The notes under the pieces: model-generated
The model's database searches: none
Seen by the model: only the letters and a program-made list of their open reading frames with translations
What the model was told of the DNA's origin: nothing
From: an uncultured Erysipelotrichaceae bacterium
Lineage (GTDB): Bacteria; Bacillota_I; Bacilli_A; RFN20; CAG-826
Reading direction: 5' to 3'
Assembly: GCA_902800025.1 (NCBI GenBank)
Contig: CADCDA010000005.1
Span: forward strand, 36,900-100,899
Length of the DNA stretch: 64,000 nucleotides
Translations under genes and position numbers: made by a program
In this document: positions 20,572 through 38,145 of the stretch, one piece after another
How the letters are laid out: every line of letters begins with the position of its first letter
Numbering within the stretch: the first letter of the stretch is position 1

Positions 20572-21000
20572 ATGAAAAAGAAATTATTCTTATTACCATT
20601 ACTCGTCCTTCCTCTCTTAGTGGCTGGATGTAAGACCATGACCTATACTCCAAGAGTTCCATATCCAGGAATTCCTGAAGATCCAGGTACAGGTCCAGGA
20701 GGAGACGATCCAGGCGAACCAATTGAAAAGAACATGGTCGTCAACTTCTATCTCAATTATTCAAATTCTGATACCCCAATTTATACGATGGAATGGTGGA
20801 GCTTAAAAGCGTTAGGTGAATGCCCAGAAGAGGCAATCTTAACTGACGCGGACGCTCCAGACCCACTCTATCCTAAATTCTTAGGCTATTCAGAATACCC
20901 ATCATCAATTGATGAAAGCCATTTGTGGGATTTCGCAAATGACTACAAACAAAGCAATATCCTTAACCTTTATGGTATCTGGGTTGCTCACGTTCAATAG
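20572..21000 (+). CDS. Small lipoprotein with InlB B-repeat-like domain
   Basis: Lipobox VAGC, Pro/Gly linker, KFLGYS...LWDF...LNLYGIW. Confidence 0.75.
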   Translation: MKKKLFLLPLLVLPLLVAGCKTMTYTPRVPYPGIPEDPGTGPGGDDPGEPIEKNMVVNFYLNYSNSDTPIYTMEWWSLKALGECPEEAILTDADAPDPLYPKFLGYSEYPSSIDESHLWDFANDYKQSNILNLYGIWVAHVQ

Positions 21001-21015
21001 AAAGGAGTAAAACAA

Positions 21016-22299
21016 ATGAGAAAAAATATTAAATATTTAGCTTTCATTCCTGTCCTCCTTTTAGCGAGCTGTAACTTCAAATTCTCTTATTCTTTACCTG
21101 ATGGAGTCACTTTCTTTACTGGATCTGGCACATGGGATGGTGGAGATGAATCATTTGATGACTCAGGTAAATATGAAATTAAGGTCTGGGTTGATAGCAA
21201 GATTCAAAGTTTGACTGAAGCCCAAATCAACAACTTTGCCGCTGTTAGTGGTGGCAAATACACGATTAGTGCGACAGTTCAAGCAATGTCCGAAGGTGAA
21301 GCTGCTAGCAAGATGCTTCAAGACGTTTCTAGTGGCGCTGATATCTTCATCTTCGCTCAAGACCAATTATCAAGATTAAAGACCGCTAATGCATTAGCTG
21401 CCTTTGATACATCTTTAACTGCTCACCTTAAATCCACTAATAGCGCAGACTCAATTAAGGCTGCTTCTATCGGAGATAAGATGTATGCTTTCCCAACTAC
21501 AAGTGATAACGGATATTTCCTTTATTACGATAGTTCTGTGGTTAATAGCGAACAAGTTAAAGACATGACTACATTACTTTCTGCTTTGAAAGCCAAGAAA
21601 AAGAAACTCAACTTTGATCGAAAGAACGGATTCTATGCGGCAAGTTATTTCTTAGCCACAGGCTGTTATTCACATTGGACTATCGACGAAAAGTCTGGTA
21701 GTTTCCTTGGTTATGATGATAACTACAATTCCGCGAATGGTATCAAAGCTGGTATGGCATATCGTGAACTCGCAGATAACTCTGTTGTTGCGACAAAGTC
21801 AACATGGACCAACTCTGCTGGAGCGATTATCACTGGTGTTTGGGAATATGAATATATTAAGAGCCAATTTGGCGATAATTTAAGATGCACCGAACTCCCA
21901 AGCTTCACATATAATGGTGAAACATTCCATATGTCTTCCTTTGATGGATATAAACTCATGGGTGTTAAACCTCAAGCAGACAAGAAAAAAGCTAGTGTGT
22001 GCCGTAAACTCGCTGAATACCTCACAAACGGTGAAAATCAACTTAATAGATTTAAACAAGTTTCTTGGGGTCCAACAAATATTGAAGCGAGCCAAAGCTC
22101 TGATGTTTTAGCTCACCCAGCCTTAGCAGCCTTAGCGGCACAACACGAATATGCAGCCCAACAAGAACAATGCCCAGGTGCATGGTTCAACTCATTGGGT
22201 GGTTTAGCTGGTAGTATCGCTACTGGTAGTTCTCAAAGTGATATTCAAACGCTTTTAGATAACTATACTGCTGGCTTACCAACATTATTGGATGATTAA
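21016..22299 (+). CDS. Maltose/maltodextrin ABC substrate-binding lipoprotein
   Basis: Lipobox LASC; ADIFIFAQDQL, MYAFP..DNGYFLYY, AIITGVW; adjacent to permeases. Confidence 0.88.
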   Translation: MRKNIKYLAFIPVLLLASCNFKFSYSLPDGVTFFTGSGTWDGGDESFDDSGKYEIKVWVDSKIQSLTEAQINNFAAVSGGKYTISATVQAMSEGEAASKMLQDVSSGADIFIFAQDQLSRLKTANALAAFDTSLTAHLKSTNSADSIKAASIGDKMYAFPTTSDNGYFLYYDSSVVNSEQVKDMTTLLSALKAKKKKLNFDRKNGFYAASYFLATGCYSHWTIDEKSGSFLGYDDNYNSANGIKAGMAYRELADNSVVATKSTWTNSAGAIITGVWEYEYIKSQFGDNLRCTELPSFTYNGETFHMSSFDGYKLMGVKPQADKKKASVCRKLAEYLTNGENQLNRFKQVSWGPTNIEASQSSDVLAHPALAALAAQHEYAAQQEQCPGAWFNSLGGLAGSIATGSSQSDIQTLLDNYTAGLPTLLDD

Positions 22300-22310
22300 A
22301 GGAGGGTTTT

Positions 22311-23816
22311 ATGGCAAATACAAACGAATTAGAATTGCTTAAAAAGACGAAGCTCCAAAGAATGGGAATCAACTTTGTTGCCTTCTTTAAATCAATTCCA
22401 ACAAAAATCAAAAATTTAGGATTATCTATTTGGGGAGCCTTAAAGAAATTCTTCTGGGGAATCGTCAATTTCTTCAAGTTTATTGGCGTGACCTTTGTCA
22501 AAGGTGATTGGAAAACAAAAGTTTCCTACTTCATCATGGGCTTTGGTAGCATCTTCAGAGGACAATGGTTAAGAGGTATTCTCTTCCTCCTGTTTGAAGT
22601 CGTATTTATTCTTTATATGGTACTTCTTGGTGGTGGATACTTCTCTAAACTATATATCTTAGGTACTCAAGAAACGATTACCCTTGATGATGGCACAAAG
22701 ATTCAAGGCGACCAATCCTTCAGCATCCTCCTTTATGGTGTGTTAACTATCTTCTTTATCGCTGCGCTTATTTATACTTGGTATCTCAATATCAAGCAAA
22801 ATAAGATTGCTGAAGAAATCATTAAAGAAGAAAAGAAGCTCGAAACTGCGAAGGATGATCTCCGTGCTATGGTGGATAAGAACTTCCACAAAACATTATT
22901 ATCACTTCCTACCCTTGGTATTGTAATCTTTACAATCTTGCCAATCTTCTTCATGGTCTTAATTGCCTTTACCGATTACGATAAGCAACACGCGACCTTG
23001 TTTGGATGGGTTGGACTTGATAACTTCAAACAATTATTTACATGGACCGCTGGTGGAAAATCATTCTCAGCGACATTCGGGCAAATCTTATTATGGACGC
23101 TTGTCTGGGCCTTCTTCGCCACATTTACTAACTACTTCTTAGGTATGTTAGTGGCGATGCTCATTAACAAGAAAGGTATCAAGATGAAGAAGTTATGGAG
23201 AACAATCCTCGTCTTCTCTATTGCTATCCCTCAATTTATTTCCATTCTTTACGTCTCACAGATGTTTGCAACAGATGGTCTAATTAATGGTTTATTTGGA
23301 ACGATTGCTGGCTGGTTTGGTAATCATAACTTCCAACCAATCGATTTCTGGGGTGACCCAATGCTAGCGCGTATTACCGTTATCATTATTAATATTTGGA
23401 TTGGTGTTCCATATTTGATGCTTGTTGTTACAGGTATCTTAATGAACATCCCTGCTGACTTATATGAGTCCGCGAATATTGATGGTGCGAATGCATGGCA
23501 ACAATATTCGAAGATTACTCTTCCATACATGCTCTTTATTACTGGACCATACTTATTAACAAGCTTTACTGGTAACATGAACAACTTCAACGTTATCTAC
23601 TTGTTAACTGGTGGTGGACCAATCAACACTGAAATGTATGGCGACGCTGGTAGCACTGACTTACTTATCACTTGGCTTTATTCCTTAGCGGTTAGTGATT
23701 CCGACTATAAGTTCGCCGCGGTTATCGGTATCATGGTCTTCATCGTGGTCTCAGTTATCTCCTTAGTGGTGTATAACTTGATTCCATCAACAAAGAACGA
23801 GGAGGAATTCCAATAA
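22311..23816 (+). CDS. Maltodextrin ABC permease (MalF/MalC type)
   Basis: EAA loop LYESANIDGA, NMNNFNVIYLLTGGGP, TDLLITWLY. Confidence 0.9.
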   Translation: MANTNELELLKKTKLQRMGINFVAFFKSIPTKIKNLGLSIWGALKKFFWGIVNFFKFIGVTFVKGDWKTKVSYFIMGFGSIFRGQWLRGILFLLFEVVFILYMVLLGGGYFSKLYILGTQETITLDDGTKIQGDQSFSILLYGVLTIFFIAALIYTWYLNIKQNKIAEEIIKEEKKLETAKDDLRAMVDKNFHKTLLSLPTLGIVIFTILPIFFMVLIAFTDYDKQHATLFGWVGLDNFKQLFTWTAGGKSFSATFGQILLWTLVWAFFATFTNYFLGMLVAMLINKKGIKMKKLWRTILVFSIAIPQFISILYVSQMFATDGLINGLFGTIAGWFGNHNFQPIDFWGDPMLARITVIIINIWIGVPYLMLVVTGILMNIPADLYESANIDGANAWQQYSKITLPYMLFITGPYLLTSFTGNMNNFNVIYLLTGGGPINTEMYGDAGSTDLLITWLYSLAVSDSDYKFAAVIGIMVFIVVSVISLVVYNLIPSTKNEEEFQ

Positions 23817-24682
23817 TGGCAGATAAAAAATCAATGTCAATGTCGAAGAAACGTCGTATTGGCAATATCGTGACTTATGTCGTCCTCATTCTCGTTTCAG
23901 TGATTTGGATCTTACCGTTCGTCTTCCTCGTGTTACAGTCATTCAGAACTGAAAATACAGGTATCGTTAACTACGTATTTCCACATCAATGGGGATTTGA
24001 TAACTATATCTTCTTATTCTCCGCTGAAACAAACTTCTTACAATGGTATTTCAATACCTTCATCATCGCGTTGTTTGTCTGTGTTCTTCAAACAGCCATG
24101 CAATTCATGATGAGCTATACCTTATCAAGATTTAGATTCAAACTTCGTAAGCCATTAATGAACGTTATGCTTGTTCTAGGTATGTTCCCTGGCTTCTTAA
24201 CGATGATTGTTCTCTATCAAGTCTTGAAGGCTGTTGGACTTACTGGAGATAACGCTGTTCCAGGTTTAATCCTTGTCTCAGTCGCTAGTAGTGGTATGGG
24301 CTATTATGTTTCTAAAGGTTTCTTAGATACATTACCAAAATCACTTGATGAAGCGGCCCGTGTAGACGGAGCGACAAGAATGGAAATCTTCTTCAAAGTT
24401 ATTCTTCCACTTTGTAAGCCAATTCTTATTTACACAGTATTGACCTCATTTATGGGTCCTTGGGGCGATTACATCTTCGCATCTGTCATCGCGCTTGGTT
24501 CTGAAACAGGTCTTAACGTCGCTGCTGGTTTATACACTTGGTTAGGCCAGTCGATGATCTCTAATAACTTCACTCATTTCTGTGCCGGTGGTGTTATTGT
24601 TGCAATTCCAGTCATGGTCTTGTTCATGTTCCTTCAAAAATACTATGTTGAAGGTGTTACTGGTGGCGCAGTTAAAGGATAG
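23816..24682 (+). CDS. Maltodextrin ABC permease (MalG/MalD type)
   Basis: SLDEAARVDGAT, C-terminal QKYYVEGVTGGAVKG. Confidence 0.92.
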   Translation: MADKKSMSMSKKRRIGNIVTYVVLILVSVIWILPFVFLVLQSFRTENTGIVNYVFPHQWGFDNYIFLFSAETNFLQWYFNTFIIALFVCVLQTAMQFMMSYTLSRFRFKLRKPLMNVMLVLGMFPGFLTMIVLYQVLKAVGLTGDNAVPGLILVSVASSGMGYYVSKGFLDTLPKSLDEAARVDGATRMEIFFKVILPLCKPILIYTVLTSFMGPWGDYIFASVIALGSETGLNVAAGLYTWLGQSMISNNFTHFCAGGVIVAIPVMVLFMFLQKYYVEGVTGGAVKG

Positions 24683-24693
24683 GAGGCTATATT

Positions 24694-26031
24694 ATGGCAA
24701 CTGTAAAATTAACAAACGTAAAGAAAATATACCCTGGCAGTGTCAATGCAACCGTGCATGATTTCAATCTTGACATTGCCGATAAAGAATTCATCGTCTT
24801 CGTCGGACCTTCTGGATGTGGCAAATCGACAACTTTGAGAATGGTCGCTGGACTTGAAGACATTTCCGGTGGAACAGTCGAGATTGATGGAGAAGTCGTT
24901 AACGATCTCCAACCAAAAGATCGTCACATCTCCATGGTCTTCCAAAACTATGCCTTATATCCTCACCTCACAGTTTATGAAAATATCGCTTTCCCATTAA
25001 GACTCCAAAAGAATCCAAAGATGAGCCAAGATGAGATTTACGAAAGAGTGACTAATGCCGCTCAAATCTTAGGTATTACTCAATACTTAACTCGTAAACC
25101 AAAAGCCTTATCTGGTGGACAAAGACAAAGAGTCGCTATCGGTAGAGCGATGGTTAAGGATTGTAAGGTCTTCCTCATGGATGAACCATTATCAAACCTC
25201 GATGCGAAATTACGTAACCAAATGAGAGCGGAAATTATTCTTTTAAGAAAGAGAATTAATACGACCTTTATTTATGTTACTCACGATCAAACTGAAGCTA
25301 TGACCTTAGGTGATAGAATCGTTTGTATGAAAGATGGCTATATCATGCAAGTTGGAACACCAACCGAATTATTTGATTGGCCAGCCAACTTATTCGTCGC
25401 TCAATTCATTGGCGCTCCAATGATGAACACGATTAAGACCGAATTAACTAAAGAAGGAAACAAATATTATGTTTCCCCATTCGGATATAAGCTCGAAGTT
25501 ACTGGCGATAAAGGTAAGCTCTTAAACGACCGCAAGGTTGAACCAAAAGAGATTTACTTAGGTGTTAGACCAGAACACGTCACTTTGGTCAAGGAAGGGG
25601 CTAAAAACGGCTTCCCAGTGACAATCTTAGTTAATGAAATGATGGGAAGTGAATATCACTTACACGTTCAAACAGAAGATGGCACTAAACTCGTTGTTAG
25701 AATTCCAACCATTAACTTAAGCGAAGAAGAAAGAGCGAAGATGGTGGCAGGCGAAGTGATTCATGTCGCATTTGAAGGCAAAGCTATGCACTTCTTTGAT
25801 ATTGAAACAGAATATAACTTATTAACTGATAATCAATATCATGCAGAAGATGATCCAGAAACACCAATCAAATCTAACGAAGCAGAAAGTGAACTCCCAG
25901 CGGAAACTTCTCCAGTAGAAGAACCAAAGGCTGAAGAAAAAGCTGAGGAAGCTAAACCAGAAGAAGCTTCTAAAGAAGAAGCGCCTGCTGAAGAAAAGAA
26001 GGAAGAAAAAGAAGAAGCTAAAAAGGAGTAA
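24694..26031 (+). CDS. Sugar ABC ATPase (MalK/MsmX type) with acidic low-complexity tail
   Basis: GPSGCGKST, LSGGQRQR, DEPLSNLDAKLR, YVTHDQ. Confidence 0.93.
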   Translation: MATVKLTNVKKIYPGSVNATVHDFNLDIADKEFIVFVGPSGCGKSTTLRMVAGLEDISGGTVEIDGEVVNDLQPKDRHISMVFQNYALYPHLTVYENIAFPLRLQKNPKMSQDEIYERVTNAAQILGITQYLTRKPKALSGGQRQRVAIGRAMVKDCKVFLMDEPLSNLDAKLRNQMRAEIILLRKRINTTFIYVTHDQTEAMTLGDRIVCMKDGYIMQVGTPTELFDWPANLFVAQFIGAPMMNTIKTELTKEGNKYYVSPFGYKLEVTGDKGKLLNDRKVEPKEIYLGVRPEHVTLVKEGAKNGFPVTILVNEMMGSEYHLHVQTEDGTKLVVRIPTINLSEEERAKMVAGEVIHVAFEGKAMHFFDIETEYNLLTDNQYHAEDDPETPIKSNEAESELPAETSPVEEPKAEEKAEEAKPEEASKEEAPAEEKKEEKEEAKKE

Positions 26032-27148: not shown

Positions 27149-29380
27149 ATGAAGAAAGGATTAATTATTACATCTGCTTTAGCCTTGCTTTTTGGTACCG
27201 CTGTTGCCGTTGGTGCACAGCCAAAAAAGGTTGCTAAGGTTGAAGCCGCTACACAAACCACGGTCTACTGTGCGATTGATGCTTCTACATTAGGAACCTA
27301 TACCCTAAAATTAAACGTCAATCGTCAAGGCGATGGAGACAATTGGCAATCATATGTGATGGATGATTTGGGAGATACTTATGAAACAAAGAAGATTTTC
27401 TCAAAAACATTTACCGATTTATATGATGGTTTAGGCGCTATTCAATTCCAACTTTACAATGGTGAAGAATGGGTTGAACAAGATCAAGTGTTTGGACCAA
27501 AAACATGGACCTCTCCTACTGTGTATAACAACAAGTTACACGTTTATAAAGGAACTGGTTGGGTAGACTATACTCCAACAAAATATACTGTTTCTGTTAA
27601 TTTGACCGATGGAGAAGGTAATGTTACTAGTACCAAAGAAGAACAAGTTTTTAAGAATAGTCTTCCAGCTACACCTGCGCTTACCTACGGACAAAGGTTC
27701 AGCGGTTGGTTTAGTGATAAAGATTTAACTCTTGGTAACGAAGTTAGCGCAATTACATCTGATTGTGCAGTCTACGGACACATTGAAACTGTACCAACAC
27801 ACAGATACACATTAGATGTTTCTTCTGTCGATATTCTATTTACCAATCCATATTTCTATGCATGGGATGCAGTAGGACATAACGCAGAATGGCCAGGACA
27901 AGCTGTCACTGATGGCAAATTCACAGTTCCTGAAGGCGCAGGATTTGTTATTGTGAGTTTCCCTGAAGAAGAAGGAAGAAAACAAACGATTGATATTTCT
28001 CAACCAACTTCACCTGTTGCAGATGAAACACTTATTATCACAGATACAGTTCTTGAAGGAAAATATGATGCTTATTGGCAATTAGACGAAGAAGCTCCAG
28101 CGGATGGTTTCTATCTTGTCGGTACAAAGAATAACTACAAATTTAGAAATGCCTCATATATTTCTGAAATCGCAAAAGATATCGATGGTAATGTCGGCTA
28201 TTTAGGTGGCTACGTTGCTGAAGCAAACGAAAAGGTTACTATTCGTAAATCATTCAAAAACATTCCTGGTTGGATTAGTAGTGATGATCCAGCTGAAGGT
28301 AGTCCAGAACAAAAGGCATATGGATATAAAGATGGTGGAGATTTCAAATTCACAGTCGCTGGAACATATGACATCTTTGTTCACGAAGATGGTTTCTATG
28401 TTGCAGAACATGAAGCAAATAGAATTCGCATTGGTGTTGTTAGCCGTTTATATAAAGGAAATACATTATATTCCTTTGAAAACGGTCCATCACAAAACTC
28501 TATTGCTGGGGCAGAATTTACTCCTAGAGCATATGAAGTTGCTGGACATCATTTCATCGGATTCTATTCAGACATATCTTGCACAACTCCATTTGATGAT
28601 GGAACAAAACTTGATTATGACACAACCATATATGCGAAATTCATTAAAGCCGGATATTACACAATTAGTGGTGCTGGCGAATGGAAGATTGTAAATGCTG
28701 TTGCGATGAATACTGAAGATATTGGTGTAAACAATAAAGCAGAAGCTGCTATTACTGTTTCAGCTGTTAATGAAACTTATTCATTCGTCTATTATAACGA
28801 AGAAGGTGAGATGGCTGGACACGCAGGCTTAGGCGCTTCATATGATTACGTTGAAGACGAAAGTGATCACATCAAATTCACAAAGACAGGTACATATACA
28901 GTTTATTGGAGCAACACCGATAACAAACTTTATGTCAATGGTGGATTACAAGCGTTCTATAGTAACTTCATTAGCTCAATGGCCGCTGTTTGTAACGAAC
29001 AAGGCGAATACGCTACAGAAGAAGCATACAATGCTGTTAAGGCTGCATGGTTACAACAAAAGGCTGCTTATGAAGCATTAAGTTCAGCAGACAAAAAGAC
29101 AATCTCTGATATCGGCTTCGATGGTGGTAGTACTGATCCAGAAGCAGACCAATCCTTAAAGATGGTTGCTAAGTATCATTACATCGTCTATAAATATGGC
29201 ACAGCCGAATTTAATGACTTTATCTGGAATCAAAATCTTGCTGCTAATAATTCGTTCAGTTTACCATATGAACGTATCAGCACAAGCAATAGTGATATTA
29301 TCGTTATCACAATTATCGCTGCAACAGTCGCAGCAATCTCTGTCGGCGTGTTCTTCATGCTTAAGAGAAAACACGACTAA
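27149..29380 (+). CDS. Modular surface protein (putative starch-binding modules, B-repeats, helical C-terminal domain + TM tail)
   Basis: SD AAAGGAG before ATG 27149; signal peptide ending KVEA; CBM26-like YFYAWD..NAEWPG; SusE-like FYLVGT..GTYDIFV repeats; ends in TM + KRK. Confidence 0.85.
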   Translation: MKKGLIITSALALLFGTAVAVGAQPKKVAKVEAATQTTVYCAIDASTLGTYTLKLNVNRQGDGDNWQSYVMDDLGDTYETKKIFSKTFTDLYDGLGAIQFQLYNGEEWVEQDQVFGPKTWTSPTVYNNKLHVYKGTGWVDYTPTKYTVSVNLTDGEGNVTSTKEEQVFKNSLPATPALTYGQRFSGWFSDKDLTLGNEVSAITSDCAVYGHIETVPTHRYTLDVSSVDILFTNPYFYAWDAVGHNAEWPGQAVTDGKFTVPEGAGFVIVSFPEEEGRKQTIDISQPTSPVADETLIITDTVLEGKYDAYWQLDEEAPADGFYLVGTKNNYKFRNASYISEIAKDIDGNVGYLGGYVAEANEKVTIRKSFKNIPGWISSDDPAEGSPEQKAYGYKDGGDFKFTVAGTYDIFVHEDGFYVAEHEANRIRIGVVSRLYKGNTLYSFENGPSQNSIAGAEFTPRAYEVAGHHFIGFYSDISCTTPFDDGTKLDYDTTIYAKFIKAGYYTISGAGEWKIVNAVAMNTEDIGVNNKAEAAITVSAVNETYSFVYYNEEGEMAGHAGLGASYDYVEDESDHIKFTKTGTYTVYWSNTDNKLYVNGGLQAFYSNFISSMAAVCNEQGEYATEEAYNAVKAAWLQQKAAYEALSSADKKTISDIGFDGGSTDPEADQSLKMVAKYHYIVYKYGTAEFNDFIWNQNLAANNSFSLPYERISTSNSDIIVITIIAATVAAISVGVFFMLKRKHD

Positions 29381-29406
29381 TCAATTAAGATTATAAATTA
29401 ACAACT

Positions 29407-29432
29407 AGGCCAGGGGAGACCCTGGTCTTTTT
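29407..29432 (+). terminator. Intrinsic terminator
   Basis: AGGCCAGGG-GAGA-CCCTGGTCT followed by TTTT. Confidence 0.8.
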
Positions 29433-29437
29433 GTGTC

Positions 29438-29623
29438 ACTATATCAAAGATATCGATATTTTGTTGTTGTCTTTATATTTGTATAAAAATATAATAATCG
29501 TATATTAGTTTTTTGAAATTATTTGAATGATTTCAGGAAAATATAAAAGAATCAAAGCGACAAACAAATCATTTGTCGTATTTAATTACCATTGTATTTC
29601 TTATCTTTGATTGGAGTATGACT
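29438..29623 (+). promoter_or_regulatory. Operator palindrome + sigma-A promoter + structured 5' leader (copy A)
   Basis: ATATC-AAA-GATAT (29441-29453); TTGTCT-17-TATAAT (29467-29495); two stem-loops; homologous to 31221-31464. Confidence 0.75.
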
Positions 29624-31144
29624 ATGAAATTAAGACACTCATTAATTATTGGATGTTTAACAGCATTATTAGGTGTTGGTGCTTTTGTTTTTATACCATC
29701 TGCAAACCAGCCAAATGCCCAGAAAGCCGAAGCTAATAATACAACCGTGACCTTCTATGTTGCTGTTAATACCGCAGATATTGGTAGTAATAATATGACT
29801 TGTAATTTGAGACTCGGCGATGGAGACTATACTGATTATCAAAATATGACCATGGTTGAAAAGGGAATTACTTATAGTGGTAAAAATGTTTATTCTTATA
29901 CATTCACAGAAAAATATGGTGGCGCAGAATTCCATCTTCGTTATTTTGTTGGCGCTGTAGAGCACTATGTTCATGCTTCATATGGCGACTGGACAGCTGT
30001 TAGTACTTTTTCAGGAAAACTATATACTTTTGAAAGCGGTGAGGGATCGTCTTGGGTATCATATTCTATCCCAACCAGATATAGTCTTGTTGGATCTGGT
30101 AGCGGTTGGGAAAATGATATTGATCTAACTTCTAACGGTGATGGGACATATTCGACAATTAAAGATTTTGTGATTAATGAGCAATTTAAAATTAGACAAA
30201 ACCATTGTTGGTATGGAGGCTGGGGATATAACAATGTTTCTGGCACCGGTTCAACTTACTTTGTCGATTCTGATGGTAAAACTGGAAACAACTTTAAATG
30301 CACTTTTGGTGGCAATTATACAATCAAATTTAATCCGACCAATTCATCTTTTGTGATTACAGATAATACAAGCGAAACTTTTTCTTACATTTTAACAATG
30401 AAGGACGATTATTCCTGTGGATATCTATATAATAGTGATTCAGACAAATATTCGGAATGGATTCCTGCTCCAGCATTTTCATCTTTAGGCGGTGGACAAG
30501 CTTATAATGTTAAAATCGATTATAATAGTGATTACTATTATGGCTTATACAAAATTAGTGATAGGTATTTATCTTCATTTACTTATTTAATCGCCAAGAA
30601 AAGTGGTAACTATAGTGGAGCGTATGACAATCAATCTTGCACATTTACAGTGACCGATCCTCATAGTGTTTATATTTGTAACAATACAGCGACCCCTGTA
30701 TATGTTACTGGCACATCAACGTTATATAATGCTTTAGAGTTTATTTATGATTTAGTTGGCCATCGTGGAAACGCTTCATATGACAACCATAGTTTTGATT
30801 ATTCTATCTGTGCAACTTCCGTGTCTGAAGCAGAAAGACTTATTAATGCTTACGATAATGTTATCGGCGCTGGCGCTCAAGCCATTTGCGAAATCTCATA
30901 TTGCTATGTTTATAAGTTAACCGGTGGTTATAACGAAACAAATAAAGAATATCGTACAATTTCTGATATGGTTGACGCATTAAGACTTATTGTTGAGAAG
31001 AATTCAAATAACGGATCCCCAGCAAATGCGTTAGTCAACAATACAAGTGGTTCAGATACAACAATGGTTGCTATTCTCTCTTCATTTACCGCATTAGTAA
31101 CTGTTGGTGGATTCTTCTTCATCCGCAAAAAGAAAGTAATGTAA
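29624..31144 (+). CDS. Modular surface protein (SusE/F-like module, helical C-terminal domain + TM tail)
   Basis: SD GGAG 7 nt before ATG 29624; signal ending KAEA; YSLVGS..GW...FKIRQNHCW; ends in TM + RKKK. Confidence 0.85.
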   Translation: MKLRHSLIIGCLTALLGVGAFVFIPSANQPNAQKAEANNTTVTFYVAVNTADIGSNNMTCNLRLGDGDYTDYQNMTMVEKGITYSGKNVYSYTFTEKYGGAEFHLRYFVGAVEHYVHASYGDWTAVSTFSGKLYTFESGEGSSWVSYSIPTRYSLVGSGSGWENDIDLTSNGDGTYSTIKDFVINEQFKIRQNHCWYGGWGYNNVSGTGSTYFVDSDGKTGNNFKCTFGGNYTIKFNPTNSSFVITDNTSETFSYILTMKDDYSCGYLYNSDSDKYSEWIPAPAFSSLGGGQAYNVKIDYNSDYYYGLYKISDRYLSSFTYLIAKKSGNYSGAYDNQSCTFTVTDPHSVYICNNTATPVYVTGTSTLYNALEFIYDLVGHRGNASYDNHSFDYSICATSVSEAERLINAYDNVIGAGAQAICEISYCYVYKLTGGYNETNKEYRTISDMVDALRLIVEKNSNNGSPANALVNNTSGSDTTMVAILSSFTALVTVGGFFFIRKKKVM

Positions 31145-31173
31145 TTTTGTACTGATTTTATCTGAAAAAAATT

Positions 31174-31203
31174 GAAGTGGTGAGACATCCACTTCTTTCA
31201 TTT
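31174..31203 (+). terminator. Intrinsic terminator
   Basis: GAAGTGG-loop-CCACTTC followed by TTTCATTT. Confidence 0.7.
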
Positions 31204-31220
31204 GTGGTAAACACTAATTA

Positions 31221-31464
31221 ACTATATCTTTGATATAGATTTTTTCTGGTTGCCTTTATATTTATAAACAAATATAATGTCTCCAATATTATTTTTTGAA
31301 AATCCGTTGGTGATTTCAGAAAAGAATATACAAGAAACAAAGTGACAACAAAGAACAAGCGATTGAAACTTGCTACTATTGCCACATTTAATAACCTTTC
31401 AGTTTCTTGTTATATCTAGGAGATGAACTTAGACGTTGGTTATTTGTTAAGTTCAAGTGTAATT
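31221..31464 (+). promoter_or_regulatory. Operator palindrome + sigma-A promoter + structured 5' leader (copy B)
   Basis: CTATATC-TTT-GATATAG (31222-31238); TTGCCT-17-TATAAT (31250-31278); leader homologous to copy A. Confidence 0.75.
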
Positions 31465-32619
31465 ATGAAAGTTAGACATTCATTAATTATTGGTTGTATG
31501 ACAGCGTTATTGGGTGTTGGCGCTTTTGTTGGCGCTGGCACTAGTAGAGAAGTTAGAGTTGAAAAGGCTGAGGCTGCTACCTCAAATAGAGAAATTACTT
31601 TAATAAACGATACTTACTGGTGGTATACAAACGAAGATGCCATTAAAGTTCATGTTTGGGATGGTGGAGCAACTGATTCAACTATAAATATGGAAATGGT
31701 TGCTAATTCAGCAAGACGTAAATGGACAGCGACAGTTAATGTTAGCGACACATCAATGATTGAATTTATTAGATGTAGCGAAGATTATACAACAGATTGG
31801 AATTGGAGCAGCAAAACAACAATCAGTGATTGTGATTATTTCACTTTAAACAATGATGCTCCTGGCGGATATGATGGTGCTTCAATTACTCGTTCATATT
31901 CTAATGGAACTTACTTAAGAGGAACATTCCAAGATCCAGAATTTACTGATTATGGGCAAAAAAGAATGAGTGCTTCTGATAAAGATGGCTATTCTGTTAT
32001 GCTTAAAGATTTTACAATTACAAAAGCCACGCGTTTTAAGGTTGTTTATTACACTGACGGCGTTATGGAATGGGGTGGCAATATATCCGGACACTTATCT
32101 GATGACGATGCTAATTATCCGTTATATGAGTTCAGCGGTTCTGATGGATATTTAACAGCTAGTGGCACATATGATTTATATGTTAATACAACATCAAACG
32201 ATTATTATGTTGTTTCCCCAACAGGAAGATATGCTACAAAATTCTTAGAAGAGATTGTTTGCCCAGGCGAAGTTTACAGTGGCGGTAGTGAGAAGTGGGA
32301 TCTAATGTCTGGATTATTCACCTCTTCACTAAATAGTGGAGCAAGAGGAAAATTTACTTCTGCTTCTGCAAATATGAGCGGAACGATTGTTGAACAAGCA
32401 GTTGCTAGATATGATGCTGTTGTTAGACACTACGGCGCCAGTACATATGCAAATTATATGAGCAGAACAATTAGTCCTGCTCCAAGTGGCTCAATCGCTG
32501 TTGGACAATTATCAAACGACATGGCTAATAGTGGTTATTTTGCCGCAATTGCTTCTGCGTTTGTTGCGTTAATTGCAGCAGCAGGATTCGTTATTATTAA
32601 GAAAAAGAAATCAATCTAG
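31465..32619 (+). CDS. Modular surface protein (CBM26-like + SusE-like modules, helical C-terminal domain + TM tail)
   Basis: Signal peptide MKVRHSLIIGCMTALLGVGAFV is nearly identical to that of 29624, which fixes the start; WW...KVHVWD module; ends ARYDAVVRHYG + TM + KKKK. Confidence 0.85.
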   Translation: MKVRHSLIIGCMTALLGVGAFVGAGTSREVRVEKAEAATSNREITLINDTYWWYTNEDAIKVHVWDGGATDSTINMEMVANSARRKWTATVNVSDTSMIEFIRCSEDYTTDWNWSSKTTISDCDYFTLNNDAPGGYDGASITRSYSNGTYLRGTFQDPEFTDYGQKRMSASDKDGYSVMLKDFTITKATRFKVVYYTDGVMEWGGNISGHLSDDDANYPLYEFSGSDGYLTASGTYDLYVNTTSNDYYVVSPTGRYATKFLEEIVCPGEVYSGGSEKWDLMSGLFTSSLNSGARGKFTSASANMSGTIVEQAVARYDAVVRHYGASTYANYMSRTISPAPSGSIAVGQLSNDMANSGYFAAIASAFVALIAAAGFVIIKKKKSI

Positions 32620-32754: not shown

Positions 32755-34185
32755 ATGAAAAAACATTTAGGTATTCTTCTTGCCGTTTCATCCTTACCAG
32801 GAAATCATGGAATCGGTGATTTTGGTGATTCTTGCTACAAATTAATTGATTGGTTAGCGGATAATGGATATGAATATTGGCAAACCCTTCCTCTTAATCC
32901 AGTTGGACCAGGTTATTCACCATATATGTCTACATCAAGCAATGCTTTAGAATATCGTTATATATCTTTAGATATGGTGTCTAAGATGGGACTTATTCCT
33001 AAAGTAGCGCCCCATAATCCAGACACTACTCATGTTGATTATTATGATGTTGGGGAATTCAAAAGAAGAGAGCTTTATCTTGCCTATAGAAAGTTTATTA
33101 AGAATCATAAGGAAACATTACATAAATTTAAAACTCAAAATCCTTGGGTTAATACATACGCGACTTTTGAAGTCTTTAAATCATTAAATGATAATAAGCA
33201 GTGGAATGAATGGGATGAAAGATTCCTTAATTATTTCAATCACCATAATAAGCCACCAAGAACATTTAAGACTGAAATTAACTTTGTTATCTTCCTTCAA
33301 TATTTAGCGCTTAAGCAGTGGAAGAGAGTTTTACGTTACGCGAAAAAGAAAAATATTAAGATTATTTGTGATATGCCATTCTATGTTGGTTTTGATGGAG
33401 TGGAATGTTGGCTACATAGAGACCAATTCCAAATCGGACCAGATAACAAGTTATTTGAAGTTGGTGGAGTTGGACCAGATGCTTTCTCTGATGTTGGACA
33501 ATTATGGGGTTCACCGATATATAACTTTGAAAGAATGAAGAAAGATAACTATAAGTTATTAATTGATAGAGTTGGCTATTTAGCATCTTTATGTGATTAT
33601 TTACGTATTGATCACTTTAGAGCGTTTGATACATATTATGTGATTCCAGCAGGTGAAGAAACCGCTCGTAATGGCGAATGGAAGATTGGACCAAGAGATG
33701 AATTCTTTAACGAATTATATAAAAGATATCCAAATATCAATTTGATCGCTGAAGATTTAGGCGATTTAAGACCTGAAGTTCTTGAATTAAGAGATCAATT
33801 CAATTTACCAGGAATGTTTATTTGTGAATTCACAATCTTTGATTTGAAACAAGAGTCCACAGAAAGACAATTAGTGTATCCAGGTACGCACGATAATGAA
33901 ACTTTATATGGATGGTATCTGAATTTAAACGATGACCAAAGATGGTTTATCGCTAATAGATTAAATACTACCTATGACGATGGTTTATATGATAAAATCG
34001 TTGAATATATTTATAAGATTCCAAGTTTAATGACTATTTTCCAATTACAAGATGTCCTTAAACTTGATAACAGTGGCCGTATGAATTGGCCAGGTACAGT
34101 CGGTGATCCAAACTGGACATGGAAACTTAAAGACTTCTCCTTCACTAAAGAAGTTAAGTATCCAAAGAAAGAATGGGTTGAATAG
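32755..34185 (+). CDS. malQ: 4-alpha-glucanotransferase (GH77)
   Basis: SSLPG..GIGDFG, SPY, GPDAFS..GQLWG.P, RIDHFRAF, AEDLG, GTHDN. Confidence 0.96.
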   Translation: MKKHLGILLAVSSLPGNHGIGDFGDSCYKLIDWLADNGYEYWQTLPLNPVGPGYSPYMSTSSNALEYRYISLDMVSKMGLIPKVAPHNPDTTHVDYYDVGEFKRRELYLAYRKFIKNHKETLHKFKTQNPWVNTYATFEVFKSLNDNKQWNEWDERFLNYFNHHNKPPRTFKTEINFVIFLQYLALKQWKRVLRYAKKKNIKIICDMPFYVGFDGVECWLHRDQFQIGPDNKLFEVGGVGPDAFSDVGQLWGSPIYNFERMKKDNYKLLIDRVGYLASLCDYLRIDHFRAFDTYYVIPAGEETARNGEWKIGPRDEFFNELYKRYPNINLIAEDLGDLRPEVLELRDQFNLPGMFICEFTIFDLKQESTERQLVYPGTHDNETLYGWYLNLNDDQRWFIANRLNTTYDDGLYDKIVEYIYKIPSLMTIFQLQDVLKLDNSGRMNWPGTVGDPNWTWKLKDFSFTKEVKYPKKEWVE

Positions 34186-34196
34186 GAGGGGTATAA

Positions 34197-34958
34197 ATGA
34201 AATTAACGAAAAAAGCCTTACTATTGACATCAATGATTCCTTTACTTGCTAGTTGTTCAACTAGCTCTATTGCGGGAACATATTATTTCCAAATGGGAAA
34301 AGAACAAGGAACCCATTTTGGAGTGTATTTATATTTAACCGATGAAGCATATATCCCAGAAGAAGGGGAAGATATCGGAGATGAAAGCTTCAAGAAATTT
34401 ATTTTTGATGCGAGTTTCCAATTCCCAACTGAAGAAGAAGGAAGTGCTTCTGAAGCTATCGAAAATATTTTGAAATATTTCCCTAACGGTATTCCTGGGT
34501 ATTATCGCTTAACCGATGAGAAGAATCCGAAGGGCGAACAAAGAATTAAAGTTGGTATTAATTACCATGATGTTTATGATACATTTAAACAAGTGTACAA
34601 AGACACTGCTGGAGAAGATTTTCCAGTAGATGAAGAAACATTAGAAACTTTAAATAACTCCGCGATTATTCAATCTCTTCTATATACGACATATAAAGAT
34701 AGCACAGTGAATATGTATATTCCTGTGAGTTTTGATGATGTCTATTACCAATTATATTGGTACGGAAAAGATATCAAAATCAATATTGAACAATTTGATA
34801 TCAGTATTGTGGATGTCACTCCACATGATTTGGGAACTCATCCAAAGGCGGAAGAAATTGAAGCAATTAATAAGACTTTTGAAACCGAACATCAAGGATG
34901 CTTGATTTCTACTTTTAGAGATTTTAACCAAGTCAAAATGGGACTTATCAAGAAATAA
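34197..34958 (+). CDS. Hypothetical lipoprotein
   Basis: Lipobox LASC; SD AGGAGG; abuts the ABC ATPase gene. Confidence 0.8.
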   Translation: MKLTKKALLLTSMIPLLASCSTSSIAGTYYFQMGKEQGTHFGVYLYLTDEAYIPEEGEDIGDESFKKFIFDASFQFPTEEEGSASEAIENILKYFPNGIPGYYRLTDEKNPKGEQRIKVGINYHDVYDTFKQVYKDTAGEDFPVDEETLETLNNSAIIQSLLYTTYKDSTVNMYIPVSFDDVYYQLYWYGKDIKINIEQFDISIVDVTPHDLGTHPKAEEIEAINKTFETEHQGCLISTFRDFNQVKMGLIKK

Positions 34959-35927
34959 ATGGAAGACAATAGAGAAGTAATTATTAACGTTGAACATTTA
35001 ACCAAGGACTATGGATATGGTCGTGGTGTTTTCGATGTCTCTATTAAAGTTCATAAAGGTGAATGTTATGGCTATTTAGGCCCTAATGGAGCAGGAAAAT
35101 CCACAACGATAAGACATATCATGGGCTTTTCAAAAACTTCCGTAGGAAAGGTCCAAATCTTTGGCGTTGATTCATTTGGTAACACTGATAAGATTCTTTC
35201 TCGAGTTGGTTATTTACCAGGCGAACCCGCAATCCCAGCCGGACTAGACGGATGGGGTTTCATCCATATGATGGAAGGGATGAGAGGGGAAGCTAATGAA
35301 GAAAGACTCAAATATCTTTTAGATTTATTTAAGTTTGATCCAGGTATGCCGGTTAAACAAATGTCTTTGGGCGAAAAAAGAAAGCTCGCCGTTGTGGCAG
35401 CCTTTATGAATGACCCAGATGTTTTGATATTAGATGAACCCACTAGTGGACTTGATCCAGTGATGCAGAAAGTCTTTATTAAATTCGTCATCGACGAAAA
35501 GAAAAGAGGAAAGACGATTTTATTAAGTAGTCATATCTTCTCTGAAGTCGATGCGACATGCGATACGATTTCAATTATTAAAGACGGACATCACGTTTCA
35601 ACATTTAACGCGAATGAATTAAAGAAATCACAAGATAAGACATTTGAATTATTCTTTATGAATAAAGAAGAACTTCATAATTATCTTGATAATTTAAATA
35701 AGTTTGAAGTTCTCGCTTCTAGCGATGATTTATTAATCGCTGTGATTAAATTCCCACACGATAAACATAACGAGTTTTTCCAAACCCTTAAGGGTGTAAA
35801 GATTACAAAGTTTGAAGAGAAACCATTCACCCTTCAAGACTACTTTATGTCTTTCTATAAAGAAGAGAGAGATTTTGGTGGTCTAGAAGGTGTTAAAGGA
35901 AACACTAAGGAAGGATTAAAGAAGTAA
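34959..35927 (+). CDS. ABC exporter ATP-binding protein
   Basis: GPNGAGKST, LDEPTSGLDP, SSH. Confidence 0.92.
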   Translation: MEDNREVIINVEHLTKDYGYGRGVFDVSIKVHKGECYGYLGPNGAGKSTTIRHIMGFSKTSVGKVQIFGVDSFGNTDKILSRVGYLPGEPAIPAGLDGWGFIHMMEGMRGEANEERLKYLLDLFKFDPGMPVKQMSLGEKRKLAVVAAFMNDPDVLILDEPTSGLDPVMQKVFIKFVIDEKKRGKTILLSSHIFSEVDATCDTISIIKDGHHVSTFNANELKKSQDKTFELFFMNKEELHNYLDNLNKFEVLASSDDLLIAVIKFPHDKHNEFFQTLKGVKITKFEEKPFTLQDYFMSFYKEERDFGGLEGVKGNTKEGLKK

Positions 35928-35928
35928 T

Positions 35929-37038
35929 ATGGCAAGTAATCATAAAACTTATTTCTATTACCTCCTTGGTGAAGATAATAACACTTGGGTGGTTAAAGAA
36001 AGTGAAACACCATTTGAAGAATATAAAGAAGAATCTTTAGTAAAAGAAGAGGACAAAAAAGCTTTAGAGGAATATATGGAGCATCCATATAAACCAAAAA
36101 AGAGCGAGGAACCTACAACTTTACAAAAAACTAAAGACGGCAAAGAGATTATTATTTCCGTTAAAGGATTAACGAAAGATTATGGCAAAGGTCGTGGTAT
36201 CTTTGATATTTCTTTTGATGTTTATAAAGGCTCGGTATTTGGCTATTGCGGTACGAATGGTAGTGGTAAAACAACAACATTAAGAAATATTATGGGCTTT
36301 ATTAAGCCTGATAAAGGAACAGTGACTGTTAAAGGATTAGATTCTTGGAAATATGCCTCTGAAATCAAAAAATATATCGGCTATCTTCCAGGAGAAATCG
36401 CCTTCCCTCAAGTTGAAAACGGCACACAGTTCTTAAAGATTCAAGCTGAAAGTATCGGTCTTACCGATATGAGTAAGGCAGAGAGCTATATTAACGCGCT
36501 TCAGCTCGACCCAACCGCGAATATGAGAAGAATGTCAAAAGGAATGAAACAAAAGACTGCTTTAGTCGCTGCCTTTATGCATTCTCCTGAAATTATTATC
36601 TTAGATGAACCAACAACCGGATTAGACCCATTAATGAGAGATGTCTTCGTCCATATGATCAAAGTGGAAAAGGCTCGAGGAGCAACCATCATCATGTCTA
36701 ACCATATGTTTGATGAACTAGAAGAAACATGTGATTATGTTGGATTTATTAAAGATGGACATCTTATAGATGTCGTCAATATGGAGGAATTAAGAAATCT
36801 TCCATATCGAGATTATAAGATAGTGTTTGAACACAAAGAAGATTATGAGAACTTAGACTTACGTAATGTCAATGTGTTAAGTAAAGATGATTACGAACAT
36901 TCGATATTAGTAAGAGTCGACTTAAAAGATACGAATAAGCTCATCACAAATTTGAATAAATACCCAATCAAATCAGTTACTGAAAAGAAACACACATTAG
37001 AAGAATTCTTTGTTAAAGATATAGGAGGAGAAGAATGA
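35929..37038 (+). CDS. ABC exporter ATP-binding protein with ~70-aa N-terminal extension
   Basis: GTNGSGKTT, MSKGMKQK, LDEPTTGLDP; paralog of the upstream ATPase. Confidence 0.9.
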   Translation: MASNHKTYFYYLLGEDNNTWVVKESETPFEEYKEESLVKEEDKKALEEYMEHPYKPKKSEEPTTLQKTKDGKEIIISVKGLTKDYGKGRGIFDISFDVYKGSVFGYCGTNGSGKTTTLRNIMGFIKPDKGTVTVKGLDSWKYASEIKKYIGYLPGEIAFPQVENGTQFLKIQAESIGLTDMSKAESYINALQLDPTANMRRMSKGMKQKTALVAAFMHSPEIIILDEPTTGLDPLMRDVFVHMIKVEKARGATIIMSNHMFDELEETCDYVGFIKDGHLIDVVNMEELRNLPYRDYKIVFEHKEDYENLDLRNVNVLSKDDYEHSILVRVDLKDTNKLITNLNKYPIKSVTEKKHTLEEFFVKDIGGEE

Positions 37039-38009
37039 TGGAAAATAGAAAACAATTTATCTCAAAACCATTATTTAAACAGTCAATGAAATCCTTATTA
37101 GGATTATGGATTGCCTTGATGGTTGGATCCGCTTTTATCTTTATTGCCATTAACTTAGCGATTGGTTCAAAAAACTTATTCACTAATATCGATATGGATA
37201 GTGTTACCGCTTATGTTAAGGAAGAAAATTTAAGCTGGCTTAAGATTTTAGGATTATTAGAAAAGATGGGATTCTCATTAAGCAGAATTCAAATCATGTC
37301 TCAAATCGACTTAAATAGTATTCTTAACGAATTAGTGTATAAGATCGCTGGCGTGTTATTACCAATGATTTATGTGATGATTGCCGCGAATAAACTAATT
37401 GCCGCTCAGGTGAGCGATGGATCAATGGCGTATGTTTTATCGACTCCAACGAATAGAAAGACCGTTATTAGAACTCAATATGTCTTCTTATTATTTACAA
37501 TTACAATTATGTATTTAGCAATTACTGTTGCTGCGACTGCTTCTGAAGGTATCAGCTTTGCAGTAGCAAAAGCAGGTAATCCAGAATTAAGTGGTAGTTG
37601 GAACCCAACTACAACATTACTTTTCTGTCTCGGTTCTTATTTAGCGATTTTTGCATTAAGTGGAATTTGCTTTGGAGCTTCTTGCTTCTTTAATAAATCC
37701 AGTAATTCCATCGCTGTTGGTGGAGGAGCATGTATTATTAGCTTCCTTTGCTGTATTTTAGGCTTATTTGGTAATGAAGTATTCGTCGCTGTCGGTATTG
37801 GTGTTAAGGCGATGTCTTTCTTCAATTATTTATCAATCTTCACTCTAGTGGATAATAGTTCAATGTCTTCCTTTGCTAAAGCATTAGCAGGATATGACGC
37901 CACGATTAGCTTCACCTGGATTTGGAAGTTAGCTATTCTTATCGCTATCGGAGTTGTCTTTGCGATGATCGGCGGTAGGAAGTTTGTTAAGAAAGACTTA
38001 CCATTATAA
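37035..38009 (+). CDS. ABC-2 type exporter permease
   Basis: Multiple TMs, DGSMAYVLSTP..R, C-terminal FVKKDLPL. Confidence 0.88.
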   Translation: MMENRKQFISKPLFKQSMKSLLGLWIALMVGSAFIFIAINLAIGSKNLFTNIDMDSVTAYVKEENLSWLKILGLLEKMGFSLSRIQIMSQIDLNSILNELVYKIAGVLLPMIYVMIAANKLIAAQVSDGSMAYVLSTPTNRKTVIRTQYVFLLFTITIMYLAITVAATASEGISFAVAKAGNPELSGSWNPTTTLLFCLGSYLAIFALSGICFGASCFFNKSSNSIAVGGGACIISFLCCILGLFGNEVFVAVGIGVKAMSFFNYLSIFTLVDNSSMSSFAKALAGYDATISFTWIWKLAILIAIGVVFAMIGGRKFVKKDLPL

Positions 38010-38026
38010 TCTATAGAATAATATAA

Positions 38027-38060
38027 AGGTCCGTTTCTTATGAAACGGTCTTTTATTTTT
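38027..38060 (+). terminator. Intrinsic terminator
   Basis: CCGTTTC-TTAT-GAAACGG followed by TCTTTTATTTT. Confidence 0.75.
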
Positions 38061-38145
38061 CTCTATATTTAGAAAATGACTTTTTTGATTATTTATTGCA
38101 TTAGGTATTCACATATAATTTGTCATTATTGTATAATGACTACGT

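Follow-up and report, generated by a model that had tools for sequence, protein, structure and literature searches.

Three consecutive genes in a 64,000-nucleotide stretch of DNA from an uncultured Erysipelotrichaceae bacterium (GenBank assembly GCA_902800025.1, contig CADCDA010000005.1, positions 36,900 to 100,899 of the forward strand; GTDB lineage Bacteria; Bacillota_I; Bacilli_A; RFN20; CAG-826; the whole stretch is herein referred to as the window) encode proteins with signal-peptide-like N-termini, P1, P2 and P3, that share a four-part C-terminal end with a fourth protein of the window, S. In all four, a helical domain of ~85-95 aa with a single Cys in the loop after its first helix is followed by an Asn/Ser (N/S)-rich linker, a transmembrane (TM) helix and a short Lys/Arg (K/R) tail; we refer to this end as the cassette. 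We consider it likely that the three tandem genes specify surface-displayed, multi-module starch binders held on a permanent type-I membrane tether, with the helical domain and linker of the cassette placed between passenger and anchor. The host is represented by a metagenome-assembled genome (MAG) of 1.57 Mb in 26 contigs that is 95% complete. P1, P2 and P3 are consecutive, head-to-tail open reading frames (ORFs), all on the + strand, as read from the ORF list and its translations, and the features of the four proteins are as follows (coordinates are those of the window; AF2, AlphaFold2).

27149..29380 (+): P1, 743 aa; signal peptide, beta-rich, starch-binding-like passenger of ~565 aa, and C-terminal cassette
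27149..27247 (+): predicted signal peptide of P1, aa 1-33, ending KVEA, read from the translation, with the cleavage site placed by the AxA rule
28943..29197 (+): helical domain of P1, subtype B, aa 599-683, from AF2 models and alignments
28991..28993 (+): codon of the invariant Cys615 of P1, the first residue of the low-confidence loop 615-620
29198..29296 (+): N/S-rich disordered linker of P1, aa 684-716, from AF2
29297..29377 (+): TM helix (aa 717-738) and tail KRKHD of P1, from the translation and AF2
29624..31144 (+): P2, 506 aa; signal peptide (ending KAEA), beta-rich passenger, subtype C cassette
30722..31000 (+): helical domain of P2, subtype C, aa 367-459, with Cys396 at nt 30809-30811
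31058..31141 (+): TM helix (aa 479-500) and tail RKKKVM of P2
31465..32619 (+): P3, 384 aa; signal peptide (ending KAEA), passenger, subtype B cassette
32230..32460 (+): helical domain of P3, subtype B, aa 256-332, with Cys266 at nt 32260-32262
32536..32616 (+): TM helix (aa 358-378) and tail KKKKSI of P3
48030..48524 (+): S, 164 aa, a minimal stand-alone member with signal peptide, helical domain (aa 41-118, Cys65 at nt 48222-48224), TM helix (aa 135-157) and tail KNNKFIE

An earlier, sequence-only reading of this stretch had described three tandem exported proteins that end in a helical domain, a linker, a TM helix and a basic tail and that lack LPXTG, and the translations bear this out; no LPXTG motif is readable in the tails of P1-P3 or S. 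The N-termini of P1-P3 comprise a K/R-rich n-region and a hydrophobic stretch followed by KVEA, KAEA and KAEA, respectively, in keeping with the (V/A)EA endings given in that reading (the signal peptides were read from the translations, without a dedicated predictor), and the host genome encodes signal peptidase I (SPase I). The Cys that it had placed early in each domain is present in all four proteins (Cys615 in P1, Cys396 in P2, Cys266 in P3 and Cys65 in S), and S, which amounts to a cassette without a passenger, contains no other Cys. Its length for the helical part, 110-130 aa, is to be revised: the AF2 models instead give ~85-95 aa of folded domain and a disordered linker of ~30 aa. The full-length AF2 model of P1 (built with 17 orthologues; mean predicted local distance difference test, pLDDT, 78.5) places beta-rich domains at aa 34-598, four helices within aa 599-683 (599-610, 624-642, 646-655 and 668-683), an unstructured segment without secondary structure at aa 684-714 and a TM helix at aa 715-742, with pLDDT below 50 for aa 703-731. 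The helical domain itself, predicted to be a helical bundle, has a pLDDT of 72 when modelled alone and of about 78-87 over most of its length in the full-length model, and the lone low-confidence segment within it, aa 615-620, starts at the Cys.

As a separate observation, cassette proteins also have signal peptides of a stereotyped kind, with an n-region M-N-K-L-x-T-K, a glycine-rich h-region G-V-G-V-A-x-G, a spacer of ~10 residues and an A-x-A site, both in the window (27149-27247, 29624-29734 and 31465-31575) and in members of the wider family (P0022, P0027, P0031, P0053, P0060 and others). Cassette proteins are thus conserved at both termini and variable in the middle.

The cassette is not confined to these four proteins. 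Among 4610 stop-to-stop ORFs of at least 60 aa in the host genome, 28 ORFs of at least 120 aa end in a hydrophobic stretch and a K/R cluster, many of which on reading share a helical segment ahead of the anchor, and at least 12 exported proteins of the genome carry the four-part design. When 12 such segments were aligned (four from the window and eight from elsewhere in the genome), the Cys was the only invariant column. The passengers of the paralogues are unrelated to one another and include an S8 protease with Big_2, a GH16 enzyme and a CBM35-like protein (CBM, carbohydrate-binding module), among others. A profile of the 12 segments, compared with 1.84 billion representative proteins, returned 719 representatives at E 0.001 or better, from the best 150 of which the architecture counts were drawn. 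Matches with one or two stretches account for 82 of these 150; in 79 of the 82 the domain ends 29-51 aa from the C-terminus, and the TM plus K/R pattern fits 76 of them all told. The Cys is kept in all 79 of the C-terminal members and is readable in 40 of 40 translated hits from the genus; in a MAFFT alignment of 51 rows its column stands at at least 90%, not 100%. A crude signal-peptide pattern is passed by 56 of the 79, and most of the others look N-terminally fragmentary or start upstream of the true Met. The family anchor has a median uncharged stretch of 22 aa and a tail of 6 aa with 4 K/R, overall identity within the family is ~15-25%, and the cassette profile picks out 1-12 exported proteins per genome.

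Pfam recognizes only the passengers of these proteins (Flg_new in 12, Big_2 in 11, Big_3 in 5, Big-like in 3, S8 in 1 and GDSL lipase in 1 of the 63 full-length members scanned). On the C-terminal helical domain, neither Pfam nor NCBIfam returned anything for the window proteins and nine paralogues, nor did Pfam for the 63 members, and a full-text literature search found no published description of it. These results support the view that the helical domain is a lineage-specific module as yet uncatalogued in Pfam and NCBIfam. Both the host genome and the public family contain many paralogues with unrelated passengers, each with the domain just before a TM tail, an invariant Cys and no Pfam hit. 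The search that the sequence-only reading had proposed for finding them, a hidden Markov model (HMM) built from the four window segments, was run and proved a weak tool: with the tails included it finds paralogues mainly through the TM region, and without them it recovers a single further paralogue (o2203, E 0.0013).

The members fall into several subtypes, each of which is conserved in other genomes with the Cys retained. Subtype A makes up most of the public family and has a last-helix motif of the form A-R-L-x-A-W-A-x-A-N-G-E. P1 and P3, which had been said to align clearly and do so (BLASTP E 0.001 across the last helix and tail), belong with 15 further sequences to subtype B (17 sequences in all, including orthologues of the P1 domain in other genomes at 35-46% identity), the last helix of which resembles A-R-Y-D-Y-I-V-x-K-Y-G. 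The domain of P2, recognized from the outset as different, groups with o3593 of the same genome and four loci in other genomes as subtype C, and S constitutes subtype S.

The genomic setting bears directly on how the cassette may act. In the host genome there is no match to the sortase model PF04203 (which, as a control, matches in 3 of 14 genomes), to the transpeptidase model of penicillin-binding proteins (PBPs), to rhomboid (PF01694) or to exosortase (PF09721), and the sole match to Mur_ligase_M is FolC; the host thus appears, as far as its gene content can tell, to lack peptidoglycan. Field et al. predict two RFN20 families to be peptidoglycan-deficient, report sortases as missing in RFN20 and ML615J-28, and infer a reduced expression of surface proteins (PMC10868615). 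Of 24 other genomes from the host's GTDB family, 21 gave matches to a first cassette profile, as against none of 16 genomes from seven sister families, and a wider 51-sequence profile matched 37 of 65 own-family genomes as against three marginal partial matches in 135 genomes of the seven sister families, which agrees with the earlier proposal of a lineage-specific module. PBP genes occur in only 3 of the 65 own-family genomes, all three of them without a cassette hit, and in 11/11, 12/12 and 23/31 genomes of families f2, f8 and f7, respectively. The sampled genomes are related to one another and these counts are descriptive.

Because no peptidoglycan genes were found, anchoring can be explained by the TM helix itself, and because the genome yields no sortase, PBP, Mur ligase besides FolC, rhomboid or exosortase, the tail most probably serves to tether the protein permanently in the membrane, in type-I orientation. 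We envisage that the proteins would be exported via Sec with an N-terminal signal peptide cleaved by SPase I, and that the C-terminal TM helix of ~22 aa, with its positive-inside K/R tail of 4-6 residues, would act as a stop-transfer anchor that holds each protein, as a type-I membrane protein, in what would be the sole envelope layer of the cell. Between passenger and anchor would stand the predicted four-helix domain of ~85-95 aa, with its invariant Cys after helix 1, and the flexible N/S-rich linker of ~30 aa, a unit that appears to have been shuffled onto passengers as unrelated as an S8 protease, a GH16 enzyme, a GDSL lipase, adhesin-like proteins with Big or Flg_new domains, and CBM-like binders.

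The anchoring principle is already known, since the same arrangement has been described for the ScARP adhesins of Spiroplasma citri and for VmpA of the flavescence doree phytoplasma, surface proteins of wall-less Mollicutes; the novelty lies in the conserved module of four helices and one Cys that separates the passenger from its anchor. In the passages of these two reports that we draw on, ScARPs and VmpA have, as is predicted for P1-P3, a conserved, cleavable signal peptide, a large, surface-exposed ectodomain, a near-C-terminal TM helix and a short K/R-rich cytoplasmic tail (PMC2386487, PMC4392738), and ScARPs have a domain of ~110 aa just before the TM helix (PMC2386487). The comparison is one of descriptions, and those passages mention neither an invariant Cys nor a four-helix module; furthermore, ScARPs and VmpA are presented there as adhesins of insect-borne plant pathogens, whereas the cassette proteins come from a gut commensal and have enzymes and carbohydrate binders as passengers. 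An N-terminal signal peptide, a single C-terminal TM helix with a K/R tail and an apparently wall-less host (a call made on a MAG with three models) are all found here.

The cassette also resembles the LPXTG/sortase system in that a C-terminal hydrophobic stretch and basic tail recur on many exported proteins per genome, with the same types of passenger (Big_2, Flg_new, S8 protease, CBMs), but it differs from that system in having no LPXTG motif, and no sortase or peptidoglycan genes were found. The LPXTG model TIGR01167 gave no match to P1 or P3, and P2 reached only E 0.11 (13.2 bits, against a cut-off of 15.9) over the TM helix and tail. PEP-CTERM/exosortase, GlyGly-CTERM/rhombosortase and MYXO-CTERM each pair a short signature directly before the TM helix with a dedicated enzyme. 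These signals share with the cassette a C-terminal TM helix and basic cluster, many paralogues and a lineage-restricted distribution; unlike them, the cassette has a folded domain as its signature, ~30 aa upstream, and neither exosortase nor rhomboid was found.

If this interpretation is right, these are peptidoglycan-less, sortase-less gut Bacilli that nevertheless possess a rich surface set (protease, glycosidases, lipase, adhesin-like proteins and starch binders) tethered by one cassette. In that case the cassette offers a practical way to mark the lineage's surface proteome and is a candidate display tag for wall-less chassis organisms, and it raises a defined biochemical question, namely why one extracellular Cys is never replaced.

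The passengers of P1-P3 give little away at the level of sequence: there is no Pfam match (CBM families included, E up to 1) and no NCBIfam or PDB sequence match (nothing below E 0.05), and a search of 5.8 billion proteins returned only three homologues of P3. In VIA-align comparisons, the model of P1 aa 33-143 matches CBM41 (2j71; Z 8.9, root-mean-square deviation [rmsd] 3.1 A, 94 residues aligned); that of aa about 35-315 (including 212-315) matches CBM26 (6b15, Z 7.9), Sas6 (7uww, Z 7.6) and CBM25 (2laa, Z 7.3); that of aa 317-612 matches SusF (4fe9, Z 8.8), X25 (7rpy, Z 8.1) and SusE (4fem, Z 8.0); and that of aa 423-502 matches an InlB B-repeat (2y5p, Z 9.0). Three separate regions of P1 thus match modules that bind alpha-glucans and a fourth matches InlB, the starch-related matches lying at a middling Z of 7.3-8.9 and rmsd ~3 A with 85-94 residues aligned (single domains). 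Foldseek of P1 likewise gave SusF (E 4e-5), and the ESM Atlas associated the whole of P1 with CBM26, X25 and Flg_new at scores of 0.81-0.84, which serve as leads only. Because the structural matches have a uniform theme and the genes lie in a starch locus, the passengers of P1-P3 are, on the modelled folds, most likely surface starch binders. The surrounding features are listed below.

13270..26031 (+): upstream starch/maltodextrin genes, comprising a GH13 amylase, a lipoprotein, a CBM48 pullulanase-like protein and further genes (a second lipoprotein, a solute-binding protein, two permeases and an MsmK-like ATPase)
32755..42414 (+): downstream ORFs for MalQ-like, lipoprotein, ABC transporter, GlgB-like and GlgP-like proteins, named by eye
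29407..29428 (+): terminator-like hairpin after P1, from a consensus scan only
31174-31195 and 32637-32656: terminator-like hairpins after P2 and P3, from the same scan
29467-29495 and 31250-31278: promoter-like sites before P2 and P3, from a consensus scan only

The downstream names (MalQ, GlgB, GlgP) were read from the translations by eye, without a family-library scan, and the lipoprotein at 34197-34958 matches no Pfam or NCBIfam family. The consensus scan found 20 terminator-like sites as against 3.1 expected in shuffles. In a search of sequencing runs, the locus sequence was found in bovine gut metagenomes, four of which, from one study, held at least 0.72 of its words; the starch locus suggests how such minimal bacteria may compete for rumen starch.

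Strings of surface beta-sandwich modules that bind alpha-glucans, as predicted for P1-P3, are known as SusE/SusF in Bacteroides thetaiotaomicron, as Sas6 and Sca5-X25 in Ruminococcus bromii and among CBM20/25/26/41 proteins, and the likeness extends to genes that lie beside those for amylase, pullulanase and maltodextrin transport. P1-P3 differ from these systems in lacking a CBM sequence match and in being anchored by a C-terminal TM helix, not by a lipid or dockerin. In one relative (L079-L083, G013:C24), a single large ORF contains five to six tandem copies of a module of ~105 aa that is the counterpart of P1 aa 316-423. The starch locus of the window also has lipoprotein anchoring, with lipobox-like Cys ends readable at 13270-15807, 15818-17329 and 20572-21000 (all +), and a 503-aa lipoprotein contains two similar modules of ~120 aa that have no Pfam match and are possibly further starch binders.

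What the helical domain itself does is a separate matter. We consider it more than a spacer because the Cys never changes despite identities of ~15-25% and a position at the edge of a variable loop, because subtype A conserves many polar and aromatic positions, and because the passenger-less S is conserved across the genus in a fixed place between folC and secE-nusG. Indeed, the gene order Wzy_C-like, smpB, folC, S, secE, nusG is kept in a relative (the window has rpmG before secE), and most genomes of the genus have ORFs of about 160-190 aa that contain the domain. The domain would accordingly be a membrane-proximal module with a thiol-requiring function of its own, for which contact with a partner, self-association or covalent modification seem the most likely candidates.

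One specific form of this idea is that the domain serves for docking or oligomerization and gathers the tethered proteins, possibly around S, into assemblies resembling an amylosome or surface layer. The conservation of the stand-alone form and of its genomic position, the strong conservation in subtype A of polar and aromatic positions over and above what a simple core pattern would show (motif W-A-x-A-N-G-E), and the occurrence of several cassette proteins in one locus or in tandem arrays speak for such a role; however, each protein already has a TM helix that tethers it and can be retained without docking, and the VKOR and Thioredoxin_4 models for disulfide machinery had no match (DsbB and a DSBA model were not searched for). 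An AlphaFold homodimer prediction of the domain (two copies, alignment A2; score 0.04, mark 0.42) neither supports nor opposes a dimer. We regard docking as unlikely, although it is the best placed of the alternatives to a plain membrane tether.

Slightly less likely again is a true sorting signal, in which an enzyme yet to be recognized would remove the TM helix and form a covalent bond, perhaps at the Cys, between the protein and a lipid, glycolipid or second protein, and would thereby replace sortase in function. Such a signal would account for the tripartite end (signature, hydrophobic stretch, basic tail) on many paralogues, as in LPXTG, PEP-CTERM and GlyGly-CTERM proteins, and for the invariance of the Cys; the genome also has two Lgt paralogues and two CPBP (Rce1-like) proteases, including one lgt-CPBP pair with overlapping frames. 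Yet the signature is a folded 85-aa domain that ends ~30 aa from the TM helix, not a short adjacent motif, and the juxtamembrane stretch is merely biased in composition: among 79 family members, the 15 residues before the TM helix are 17% Asn and 13% Ser, no column exceeds about 50% and there is no fixed motif. The sorting function suggested by the sequence-only reading is therefore not borne out in the sortase or exosortase sense, given that the juxtamembrane region has no motif and the 95%-complete genome has no sortase, rhomboid or exosortase match. Phylogenetic profiling for a processing enzyme, as that reading had advised, was carried out for one CPBP protease, and its distribution differs from that of the domain: this protease, the one whose gene adjoins lgt, was found in 13 of the 65 own-family genomes and in other families without the domain (22 of 66 genomes in f3, for example), but in no sampled genome of four domain-positive genera (0/3 in g20, 0/3 in g24, 0/4 in g29 and 0/2 in g31). 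The CPBP protease adjoining lgt was accordingly rejected as a general processing partner. At the same low level of probability we place a covalent maturation of the Cys (lipidation, glycosylation, or a protein-protein or protein-lipoglycan link) by an enzyme not yet recognized; on this view the cassette would supply the recognition domain for a new surface-display system, independent of sortase, that a peptidoglycan-less branch of the Bacilli evolved after wall loss, with S possibly its core or adaptor.

In the overlapping pair, an Lgt paralogue of 257 aa overlaps a CPBP/Rce1-like protease of 251 aa by 11 nt (G000:C4:25000-32000, ORFs 3342-4115(-) and 2597-3352(-)); the second Lgt match lies in a 490-aa frame (G000:C20:386-1168). 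A second stereotyped C-terminal end was also seen in three exported proteins of the host genome, in which G-C-G-G-N stands directly before a TM helix and K/R tail (G000:C4 about 103710-105473, G000:C6 about 77422-79386, and a 401-aa ORF on the minus strand of G000:C23); these proteins have no NCBIfam match at E up to 10. The membrane-adjacent Cys of this tail calls to mind sorting signals that contain a Cys, such as MYXO-CTERM.

Several considerations weigh against the view of P1-P3 as starch binders on a permanent membrane tether with a shared cassette. The structural matches of the passengers are middling (Z below 9, and 9.0 for InlB), and P1 is longer than VIA-align advises. No RNA runs that carry the locus were found in the sequencing-run search. 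The wall-less call was made with three Pfam models on a MAG of 95% completeness, and retention of the TM helix in the mature protein is something we infer. Family f3 is nearly free of PBP genes (4/66) yet has no cassette (0/66), from which it follows that the module is not a general requirement of wall-less life; it reads as the invention of one wall-less family and not as a general feature of wall loss. Finally, the unity of the four subtypes, although probable, hangs on a chain of remote profile-profile links: hhalign comparisons of C with A and of C with B are not significant, and a model from 75 subtype-A representatives, made with the window's proteins left out, misses P1-P3 in a four-sequence search (E 0.012, no hit and E 0.34).

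These last two results, together with weak pairwise phmmer matches among the four window domains (E 0.05 to >1) and the poor performance of the four-segment HMM, could be taken to mean that the window holds no single shared domain and that P1/P3, P2 and S merely have unrelated juxtamembrane helices with a coincidental Cys in common. We think this improbable. Position, size and helix order are the same in all four proteins, every subtype is conserved in other genomes with its Cys, and hhalign links B with A (E 3e-5 to 7e-5, probability 63-75%, 45-51 columns), S with B (E 1.2e-4, probability 54%, 65 columns) and C with S (E 3e-5, probability 73%, 64 columns), with the Cys aligned in the printed match in each case, as against E 0.067-0.77 for nine reversed-sequence controls. 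On the basis of the hhalign links, the identical position and the helix order, A, B and S very probably form one diverged superfamily, and we say the same of C with somewhat less assurance.

Searches with the modelled fold returned no named family. Foldseek of the domain against the PDB gave a best E of 0.66, and the best VIA-align result (Z 7.2, rmsd 3.7 A, 78 aligned) was to generic helical bundles, a class in which Z values under about 13 carry no information, and FIVAR, GA and other surface modules did not appear among the matches; the ESM Atlas placed the C-terminal part in unnamed clusters only (score 0.76). FIVAR (PF07554) and GA were likewise absent from Pfam scans of the four window proteins (E up to 1), of the nine paralogues (E up to 0.1) and of the 63 members (E up to 1e-4). 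That the domain is a diverged copy of a known helical module, be it FIVAR, GA or the ~66-aa helical repeat of large Bacillota surface proteins, is the least probable explanation of all: 68 of the best 150 representatives are indeed long proteins with at least three matched stretches (up to 30), their ~66-aa helical units match profile positions ~28-68, and hhalign relates the family to the repeat units (probability 95%, E 2e-8), but that match spans only 24 columns between the family and units chosen by a pattern built on the shared motif, the repeats are tandem, lack the Cys and are not membrane-adjacent, Pfam gives them only DUF3106 matches that are sub-threshold per stretch, and no Pfam scan returned FIVAR or GA.

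We treat the ~66-aa repeats as sharing a helix-turn-helix motif of ~24 residues with the domain (A-K/R-x-A-Y-x-x-L-S/T-x-x-Q-K-x-L) and not as evidence that the domain belongs to the repeat family; only a quarter of the domain aligns, and the repeats differ from it in forming tandem arrays of 7 to about 30 that have no Cys and are not juxtamembrane. The repeats deserve mention in their own right, as large Bacillota proteins from other genomes (P0018, P0051, P0001 and P0002), some of them with type I dockerins, carry up to ~30 such units in tandem. Pfam has no adequate model for these units (weak DUF3106 matches only), and, the dockerin apart, they have no relative among PDB sequences.

Two genes upstream of S, the window encodes a Wzy_C-like protein (44167-46293, +), a polytopic protein of 708 aa that matches Wzy_C (O-antigen ligase) at E 2.8e-8. 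It occurs in a genome without detectable peptidoglycan genes, and its arrangement with S is kept in the genus; in another genus too, cassette genes lie ~1.7 kb from a Wzy_C-like gene. The search for its relatives gave matches in 28 of 65 own-family genomes and in 6 of the 66 from f3. Across the 65 own-family genomes, 24 have both the Wzy_C-like gene and the domain, 13 the domain only, 4 the Wzy_C-like gene only and 24 neither, a co-occurrence that is confounded in that both queries come from this genome, detection drops with distance and related genomes are not independent. The Wzy_C-like protein is offered as a partner of the cassette only as a lead.

A tandem array of ~17 ORFs of ~100 aa elsewhere in the host genome (G000:C6 about 9900-25300, +) gave weak chance matches to the helical profile. 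These ORFs have a conserved helical leader that ends in a double or triple Gly and variable, Cys-rich cores with CxxC pairs, and the array looks like a large set of leader-peptide (Nif11-like) precursors of ribosomally synthesized and post-translationally modified peptides.

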